DNA of 64,000 nucleotides from Escherichia coli. GTDB taxonomy: Bacteria > Pseudomonadota > Gammaproteobacteria > Enterobacterales > Enterobacteriaceae. The translations under genes were made by a program, and so were the position numbers. The first letter of the stretch is position 1. Each line of letters opens with the position of its first letter. Under the pieces are notes generated by a model. The model saw only the letters and a program-made list of their open reading frames with translations. It did no database searches and had not been told where the DNA came from. The stretch lies in NCBI RefSeq assembly GCF_041886205.1, contig NZ_CP169029.1. One strand, written 5' to 3'. This document shows, piece after piece, positions 60,975 to 62,012 of the stretch.

Positions 60975-62012
60975 TTAACGCTTATCCGCCACCAGTTTGA
61001 GCGCGTGTTCCAGCACATTAATGTCTGCACCCGCTTTATGGGCATTTTCACTTAAATAACGCCGCCACTGCCGCGCGCCAGGAATACCCTGGAACAAGCC
61101 CAACATATGCCGGGTAATATGACCGAGATACGTCCCCTGGCTGAGTTCACGCTCAATGTACGGATACATGGCGCGCACTACCGCCACCGGATCGGCATCG
61201 ATATCCGAGGAACCAAAGATCTCCCGGTCTACCGCCGCCAGAATACCCGGATTCTGATACGCCTCGCGCCCGACCATCACGCCATCCATATGTTGCAGGT
61301 GTGCTTTGGCCTCTTCCAGCGACTTGATACCACCGTTAATCGACATTGTCAGATGCGGAAAGTCACGCTTCAGTTGATACACACGCGGATAATCGAGCGG
61401 CGGGATCTCACGGTTTTCTTTCGGACTTAACCCCGAAAGCCAGGCTTTACGTGCATGGATGATGAACATCTCACACTCGCCTTTGCCGGAAACGGTGTTG
61501 ATGAAATCGCAGAGAAATTCATAGCTGTCCTGGTCGTCGATGCCAATACGCGTTTTCACCGTCACCGGAATCGACACCACATCGCGCATCGCTTTCACGC
61601 AGTCGGCAACCAGCTGCGCATTACCCATCAGACACGCACCAAACATGCCGTTCTGCACCCGGTCAGACGGGCAGCCGACATTCAGGTTGATCTCATCATA
61701 TCCACGCGCTTCTGCCAGCTTCGCACACTGCGCCAGCGCCGCCGGATCGCTACCGCCGAGTTGCAACGCTACCGGATGTTCTTCTTCACTATACGCCAGG
61801 TAATCACCTTTACCGTGAATAATCGCCCCTGTAGTTACCATTTCAGTATACAGCAACGTATTGCGGGAAAGCAGACGCAAGAAATAGCGGCAATGTCTGT
61901 CCGTCCAGTCGAGCATAGGAGCAATGCTAAACCGAGAATTCCAGTAAACACCAGTTTTTTCAGGCATCACGCTGGTTTGATTAATTTTTTGTGTTTCATG
62001 ATTATCGTGCAT
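60975..62012 (-). CDS. dusA: tRNA-dihydrouridine synthase A
   Basis: 345-aa ORF with Dus TIM-barrel features ([20 protein letters not shown]). Its 5' end abuts the integrase region. Confidence 0.9.

Follow-up and report, generated by a model that had tools for sequence, protein, structure and literature searches.

Integrases with specificity for dusA have been described whose islands replace the 5′ end of the gene and supply a substitute for its first β strand, β1 (PMC4482086, Farrugia et al., 2015). Table S1 of that report lists a prophage of ETEC H10407 at 4684277..4723914. In Citrobacter rodentium, phage 1720a-02 (Phi-stx2dact) inserts approximately 100 bp into dusA; a core of 7 bases was reported, its PhidusA′ ORF was shown experimentally to be in frame with dusA nt 101-1038, and attP was found to be regenerated in vivo (PMC6328086, Balasubramanian et al., 2019). 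The island IMEVchUSA3 of Vibrio cholerae supplies a new promoter and restores the dusA frame, and its excision factor is the PrtN-like RdfN, located across attP from int (PMC8409611, Durand et al., 2021). These three reports agree with the premise of an earlier note on the DNA examined here, namely that elements found in the 5′ end of dusA carry a replacement segment.

The DNA in question, hereafter the window, is a stretch of 64 kb from Escherichia coli. With a probability of about 0.95, its positions 61909..63515 represent the integrase-proximal (attL-side) end of a temperate phage of the mEp460/1720a-02/H10407-prophage group, integrated in dusA with repair of the gene by a phage mini-ORF.

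Anatomy of the dusA junction

The dusA gene is present at 60975..62012 on the minus strand as an uninterrupted frame of 345 codons, with the integrase gene (62101..63198, plus strand) divergent from its 5′ end across a spacer of 88 bp (62013..62100). Both the frame and its distance of 88 bp from the integrase had been claimed in the earlier note and are borne out by the ORF list, as is the N-terminus quoted there. The features assigned to this end of the element are as follows:

60975..61908, minus strand: host-derived body of dusA (nt 105-1038, codons 36-345 plus stop)
61909..61916, minus strand: att core ATGCTCGA, the attL crossover region (dusA nt 97-104, codons M33-L34-D35)
61917..62012, minus strand: phage-derived 5′ piece of dusA (PhidusA′), codons 1-32
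62013..62100, minus strand: phage-derived leader of dusA, which lies between the dusA start and int and doubles as P arm of attP
62046..62080, no strand assigned: cluster of GGGAACC motifs (GGTTCCCA..TGGGAACC inverted, GGGAACC twice direct), candidate arm-type integrase sites
62108..62116, minus strand: extended -10-like TGTTATAGT, candidate phage-supplied dusA promoter, overlapping int codons 3-6
62101..63198, plus strand: dusA-specific tyrosine integrase of 365 aa (Pfam Phage_integrase PF00589, E = 7.5e-21)
63260..63508, plus strand: DinI-like gene of the int-DinI-attP module (Pfam DinI, E = 6e-19; PHROG 189 match)

The dusA genes of the window and of the K-12-derived strain J53 are both 1038 nt in length and align without gaps. 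Mismatches number 18 of 96 in nt 1-96 and 14 of 942 in nt 97-1038 (Fisher p = 8e-12), a divergence of 19% in the 5′ piece as against 1.5% downstream, and the last of the 5′ mismatches lies at dusA nt 96 (window 61917), which sets the break at 61917/61916. At the protein level, nine of the 32 residues in the element-coded part differ from K-12 compared with one in the body. A sharp drop in identity to island-free dusA, foreseen in the earlier note within nt 60-90, is therefore present, although it falls slightly further in, at nt 96/97; the uniform identity through the start codon that would have spoken against an island origin is not what was seen. The notion of an island-free E. coli as comparator needs some qualification, as no single island-free allele exists. 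The K-12-type 5′ end, against which the drop is seen, is itself a related, phage-like sequence with 81% identity to the window piece, and the native 5′ end is carried only by genomes of the ATCC 25922 type, in which it has no relation at the nucleotide level to PhidusA′ and cannot be aligned with the window upstream of the core.

The body of dusA behaves differently from its 5′ end. It differs little from K-12 and by only 5 nt from strain E4, and thus tracks the host lineage rather than the phage. In strain KE54, the first 96 nt of dusA show a single difference from the window, compared with 28 in the body, which is itself 2 nt from ATCC 25922. Judged from these comparisons, the 5′ piece travels with the phage and the body with the host lineage.

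Ten phage genomes, including those of mEp460, SKA5, 1720a-02 and Lys8385Vzw, were found to match the integrase, spacer and 5′ piece of the window with 97.7-99.4% identity (megablast of 61850..63200 against phage records), the match stopping at window 61907-61912. The genomes of mEp460, SKA5 and 1720a-02 are virion-derived and cease to match the window at 61909, where the 8-bp core is completed. For int itself, identity to 1720a-02, mEp460 and SKA5 is likewise 97.7-99.4%, and the integrase protein shares 361 of 363 aa with that of ETEC H10407. Over 61909..63515, the window is 98.1-98.7% identical to mEp460 and SKA5. PhidusA′ has 93-100% identity to the int-adjacent piece in phage genomes and in H10407, while the 88-nt leader is identical in mEp460 and H10407 and, on sequence comparison, has no counterpart in the native zur-dusA intergenic region.

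At the point of divergence, mEp460 and SKA5 read ...ATTGCTCCTATGCTCGA followed by TAGGATGTACCGTTTTTG, which is phage DNA, and the window continues with CTGGACGGACAG, which is dusA. The only stretch identical in attP (mEp460, SKA5), attB (K-12-type), attL and attR is ATGCTCGA. In strain E4, an intact lambdoid prophage of approximately 42 kb has the same attL as the window, and its attR consists of a 105-nt K-12-type dusA pseudogene fragment adjoining yjbLM and zur, followed by TAGGATGTACCG. The arrangement in strain KE54, which has the gene neighbourhood of ATCC 25922, is similar, with the native 5′ fragment displaced. In both the K-12-type host (E4) and the ATCC 25922-type host (KE54), attL is composed of the phage left arm and the host body, and attR, about 42 kb away, of the host 5′ fragment and the phage right arm; attP in mEp460 and SKA5 is composed of the left arm of attL and the right arm of attR, with the core ATGCTCGA shared. 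Repeats thus flank the insertion at a conserved site in the 5′ part of dusA, as the attL core in the window and as attR in the relatives with an identical attL (E4, KE54). In KE54, attB is ATGCTTGA compared with ATGCTCGA in attP, and the host T is found in attL and the phage C in attR. These junctions would place the effective switch within ATGCT (61916..61912); heteroduplex segregation could give the same junctions.

The events at this site can be pictured as follows. The attP of the phage comprises int, a P arm reading away from it (with the GGGAACC repeats, the promoter-like TGTTATAGT, the leader of 88 nt and a dusA-like mini-ORF of 96 nt), the core ATGCTCGA and the P′ arm. Site-specific recombination by the tyrosine recombinase at the identical core in dusA codons 33-35 splits the gene, and the host promoter and first codons are shifted to the far end of the prophage (attR). 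At attL, the phage mini-ORF is joined in frame to the body of dusA, giving the 345 uninterrupted codons. The opening β strand (RFSIAP) of the DusA TIM barrel, the N-terminal tail ahead of it and the start codon are thereby encoded by the phage, which probably supplies the promoter too. As the phage replaces the displaced 5′ coding part, lysogeny would not destroy dusA.

An island origin of the early dusA codons, proposed in the earlier note, is supported by the contiguity of the piece with int in free phage genomes and by the displaced host 5′ fragment at the far end of the prophage in E4 and KE54. The span given there, 61920..62012, nearly equals the mapped 61917..62012, the extent of the replacement being 32 codons instead of the estimated 20-30 or so. 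The first 32 codons of dusA and the leader belong to the integrated phage, the promoter of dusA in the window is probably phage-owned as well, and the left boundary of the element is placed to within 8 bp, at 61909..61916. At the level of sequence, three points can be regarded as demonstrated: the anatomy of the junction, the derivation of the 5′ piece from a phage, and the fact that this piece is linked to the phage and not to the host. For annotation, the dusA gene of the window should be treated as a phage-host chimera and not as belonging to the host alone.

Two other origins for the divergent 5′ end were considered. A host N-terminal tail that evolves fast under weak constraint, with the integrase nearby by coincidence, would fit the concentration of residue differences in the element-coded part (nine of 32, with one in the body), and the lack of the first 23 or so residues in Thermus thermophilus DusA implies that constraint on the tail is indeed weak. 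However, the 96 nt and the 88-nt leader are physically contained in packaged phage genomes and in a plasmid-borne prophage, the divergence halts at the att core, a displaced host copy is present at attR in E4 and KE54, and the 5′ piece and the body differ in phylogenetic affinity. This explanation, already refuted by the comparison of attP, attL and attR, retains next to no probability. A mosaic made without site-specific integration, through exchange between dusA alleles of E. coli by ordinary homologous recombination, is also highly improbable. The three 5′ classes of the species could in principle be exchanged in this way, but every lysogen examined has its breakpoint in one and the same 8-bp core, a reciprocal attR is found on the other side of the phage DNA at a distance of 42 kb, and in one plasmid the junction was formed without any dusA homology. 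Integration of a phage at the dusA core is the reading followed below.

Expression signals and the far side of the element

The Pfam Dus domain is matched by residues 30-340 of the predicted protein (E = 2e-104), and its alignment with T. thermophilus DusA (3B0P) begins at residue 26 and pairs RFSIAPM with RLSVAPM. The chimeric DusA has a complete Dus TIM-barrel domain including β1; its phage-coded residues form the first strand of the barrel and a tail of approximately 25 residues with no counterpart in 3B0P. In addition to the β1 residues RFSIAP, PhidusA′ contains two ATGs in the dusA frame, codon 1 (62012) and codon 16 (61967). These two codons are also the in-frame ATGs of mEp460, while K-12 has ATGs at codons 1, 7 and 16 and Salmonella houtenae only at the equivalent of codon 7. 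A start at codon 16 gives a protein of 330 aa, matching the native form of 331 aa (native N-terminus MPAESHTVYPAYRFSIAPM). In the window sequence, no clear Shine-Dalgarno sequence was found ahead of either in-frame ATG. A translation start at Met33, within the core, was rejected as it would remove the β1 strand which aligns to the solved DusA structure.

No sigma-70 promoter or terminator was detected in 61850..62250 by a scan for strict -35/-10 boxes and terminators. The extended -10-like TGTTATAGT resembles TTATGnTATAGTA, found upstream of native dusA (ATCC 25922, Salmonella Infantis), of K-12 dusA and of the fossil alleles of Salmonella described below, and it is this conserved TGnTATAGT motif that marks TGTTATAGT as a candidate dusA promoter. 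The phage arm looks as if it mimicked the native extended -10 of dusA. Three exact matches to TGGGAACC occur in the 64-kb window, two of them within 62046..62080, and a similar double motif of 21 nt is present in the mEp460 attP 199 bp away across the core, in the P′ arm. The GGGAACC/GGTTCCC motifs are plausible candidates for arm-type binding sites of the integrase.

Doubt could be raised as to whether the fused frame has any function. Were it incidental, the chimeric dusA would be unexpressed or inactive and lysogens would tolerate the loss of a non-essential gene, and both the lack of a predicted strong promoter or ribosome-binding site and the lack of a single start codon conserved across the variants of the piece would be in keeping with this. 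It is nevertheless quite unlikely, given that the window and all relatives inspected keep the frame open, with the junction occurring in 741 genomes, and that the β1 motif RFS(I/V)AP is kept while the rest of the piece diverges. Phage-type 5′ ends have also been retained where no functional phage is left, both in K-12-type E. coli and in two subspecies of Salmonella, a persistence that implies function, and expression has been shown for the related element IMEVchUSA3 (PMC8409611). From the conservation of the frame, the persistence of such fossils and the published relatives, we infer that the chimeric dusA is expressed and active; its transcription would start from the phage promoter and its translation from a start codon supplied by the phage.

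Homology with all related phages stops at window 63515. For the following segment, 63516..63730, the six related loci used for comparison gave no match, but strain GXU-23-25-310 shares it, and an IS5-family element begins at approximately 63731 and runs past the end of the window at 64000. The prophage here may therefore be interrupted or truncated, a remnant without the ability to excise; the window covers only 2 kb of the element, ending before attR and the RDF gene. In GXU-23-25-310, the closest relative, a lambdoid prophage lies behind the same module, and a PrtN-family gene is present at the far end of the element in E4, KE54, GXU-23-25-310 and mEp460. Strain 730V1 is identical to the window over the 1.2 kb spanning the junction (window 60900..62100). 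In 730V1 no phage follows the module; instead, IS elements and defence genes occupy at least 48 kb (extracted locus 1..47220), the defence genes including a type II Zorya system, a McrBC-like system and a DEAD/DEAH helicase with a STY4851-family protein; a group II intron is also present.

The backbones attached to the int-DinI-attP module differ. E4, KE54 and mEp460 have lambda-like tails and gpJ, whereas SKA5, H10407 and a plasmid prophage have gp53-like and tail-fibre-assembly genes and a DNA invertase behind it. The integration cassette is thus exchanged between phage backbones as a module. The plasmid prophage in question is that of pEND_Eco 18005, in which int and the 5′ piece are joined to parB after ...CCTATGC. 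As this junction does not involve dusA, the 5′ piece can move without any dusA body, and the insertion suggests use of a secondary site only loosely resembling attB. In this plasmid of 205 kb (extracted locus 4903..6208), the int-DinI-PhidusA′ module is at the prophage end and parB is truncated; the prophage carries baseplate and tail-fibre genes plus an invertase. Eight plasmid records have such matches.

The 5′ alleles of dusA in E. coli

By means of three queries spanning the junction, 5422 of 5426 complete E. coli genomes could each be assigned to one of three classes of dusA 5′ end. These classes, and the loci in which the older 5′ ends were compared, are:

Native class (ATCC 25922, Nissle 1917, E2348/69): 1043 genomes
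K-12-type class: 3638 genomes (67%)
Phage-type class, as in the window: 741 genomes (14%)
Extracted J53 locus, 1406..3107: K-12 segment in place of the native zur-dusA promoter region (compare ATCC 25922 locus, 3801..4017)
Extracted S. houtenae locus, 2951..3250, and S. diarizonae locus, 2300..2530: fossil 5′ ends of Salmonella

In the native class, whose three named strains we take to belong to phylogroup B2, DusA has 331 aa and the gene lies 156 bp from zur without yjbLM; its promoter region and N-terminus (PAYRFSIAPM) are orthologous to those of Salmonella Infantis. The K-12 type has, in place of approximately 190 bp of native zur-side sequence, a segment of 1.6 kb and 34% GC with yjbL/yjbM, and the att core marks the end of its divergence from the native allele. 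The first 104 nt of K-12 dusA have 81-84% identity to the phage pieces (E about 1e-20 to 1e-24). A tblastn search found no remnant of an integrase in K-12, and blastn against phages found no phage homology upstream of K-12 dusA beyond position -3.

A related 5′ end is present in S. enterica subsp. houtenae and diarizonae. It is of the phage type, 79-82% identical to that of K-12, and has the same leader layout with a stub of 30 integrase codons upstream (tblastn E = 2e-7), beyond which lies an unrelated oxidoreductase (zinc-dehydrogenase) gene. The two subspecies apparently share one fossil attL. A degenerate PhidusA′ pattern, too narrow for inferring taxonomic distribution, gave two hits among species-representative genomes, namely S. 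diarizonae and an Escherichia sp. whose int junction is that of the window.

It appears likely from these alignments, although the argument is indirect, that the first 96 nt of the K-12-type gene and its leader are the fossil PhidusA′ of an ancient dusA-targeting element which has since lost its integrase and attR. In that case, the two Salmonella subspecies would represent the same process of decay at an earlier stage, the low-GC segment with yjbL/yjbM (DUF2713) would be leftover cargo, the truly native DusA of E. coli would be the form of 331 aa, and present-day phages would integrate into a site that one of their relatives had already altered. No prior report of a fossil origin for the K-12-type 5′ end was found in the literature searched, the search not being exhaustive, and searches of the literature on yjbL, yjbM and DUF2713 returned nothing relevant. 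YjbM matches phrog_29005 (E = 1.6e-172), which was set aside as evidence of phage origin since prophage records may overrun into the host flank; the phage collection searched does include bacterial contigs.

The opposite direction of transfer, with the K-12-type 5′ end a genuine host allele of which phages captured a copy by imprecise excision, concerns only K-12 and is considered unlikely. In its favour, arms of attP that mimic host genes must once have been derived from a host, and K-12 has neither an integrase remnant nor phage homology upstream of -3. Against this, it is the other allele that ATCC 25922-type E. coli and typical Salmonella have in common, including the promoter motif and PAYRFSIAPM. 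Moreover, the exchange of native sequence for the 1.6-kb insert in K-12 comes with a divergence that ends at the att core, and in S. houtenae and S. diarizonae a similar 5′ end is still attached to an integrase stub.

If the 5′ end of the K-12 type is indeed a fossil of this kind, phage history would have set the N-terminus, leader and promoter of dusA in the majority of E. coli, among them the K-12 reference of DusA biochemistry. This would bear on the annotation of the start codon (345 vs 330/331 aa) and on studies of dusA regulation, as well as on which empty site is chosen for calling prophage boundaries.

Comparison with described dusA elements

The element in the window has the features of the DAI family of dusA-specific integrative elements: an adjacent, divergent integrase, homology of that integrase, an insertion flanked by att sites and an in-frame replacement of the 5′ end. 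Among published elements it can be compared with the H10407 prophage, in which all 231 of 231 nt of the int-dusA junction are identical to the window and the published island end, 4723914, corresponds to dusA nt 104, the last base of the ATGCTCGA core. With respect to the dusA elements of Farrugia et al., there is no difference in kind. That survey was based on integrases and so could not detect fossils that lack one, such as the K-12-type allele.

Phage 1720a-02 is 97.7% identical to the window from int to the core, int adjoins attL in both, and its attB, GCTCCCATGCTCGACTGGA, is one base apart from GCTCCTATGCTCGACTGGA of the window. It differs in its host and in its Stx2-converting backbone, whereas the window has an IS5-family element 220 bp beyond DinI. 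IMEVchUSA3 is more distant, being an SGI1-like mobilizable island and not a phage, with only distantly related integrase and cargo; a likeness is nonetheless seen in the PrtN-family gene which relatives of the window phage also have at their far end. The promoter activity of IMEVchUSA3 was measured, while that of the window is a prediction from sequence.

Substitution for a displaced part of the target gene is also known outside dusA. The SXT ICE inserts at the 5′ end of prfC, and some phages duplicate the 3′ end of a tRNA gene. These elements are alike in bringing a substitute for the part of the gene that they displace, but differ from that of the window in target gene and integrase family, and those that target tRNA genes replace a 3′ end and need neither a promoter nor a start codon. 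The main finding at the window locus is thus a mechanism already known from the literature, in an element that hardly differs from those published.
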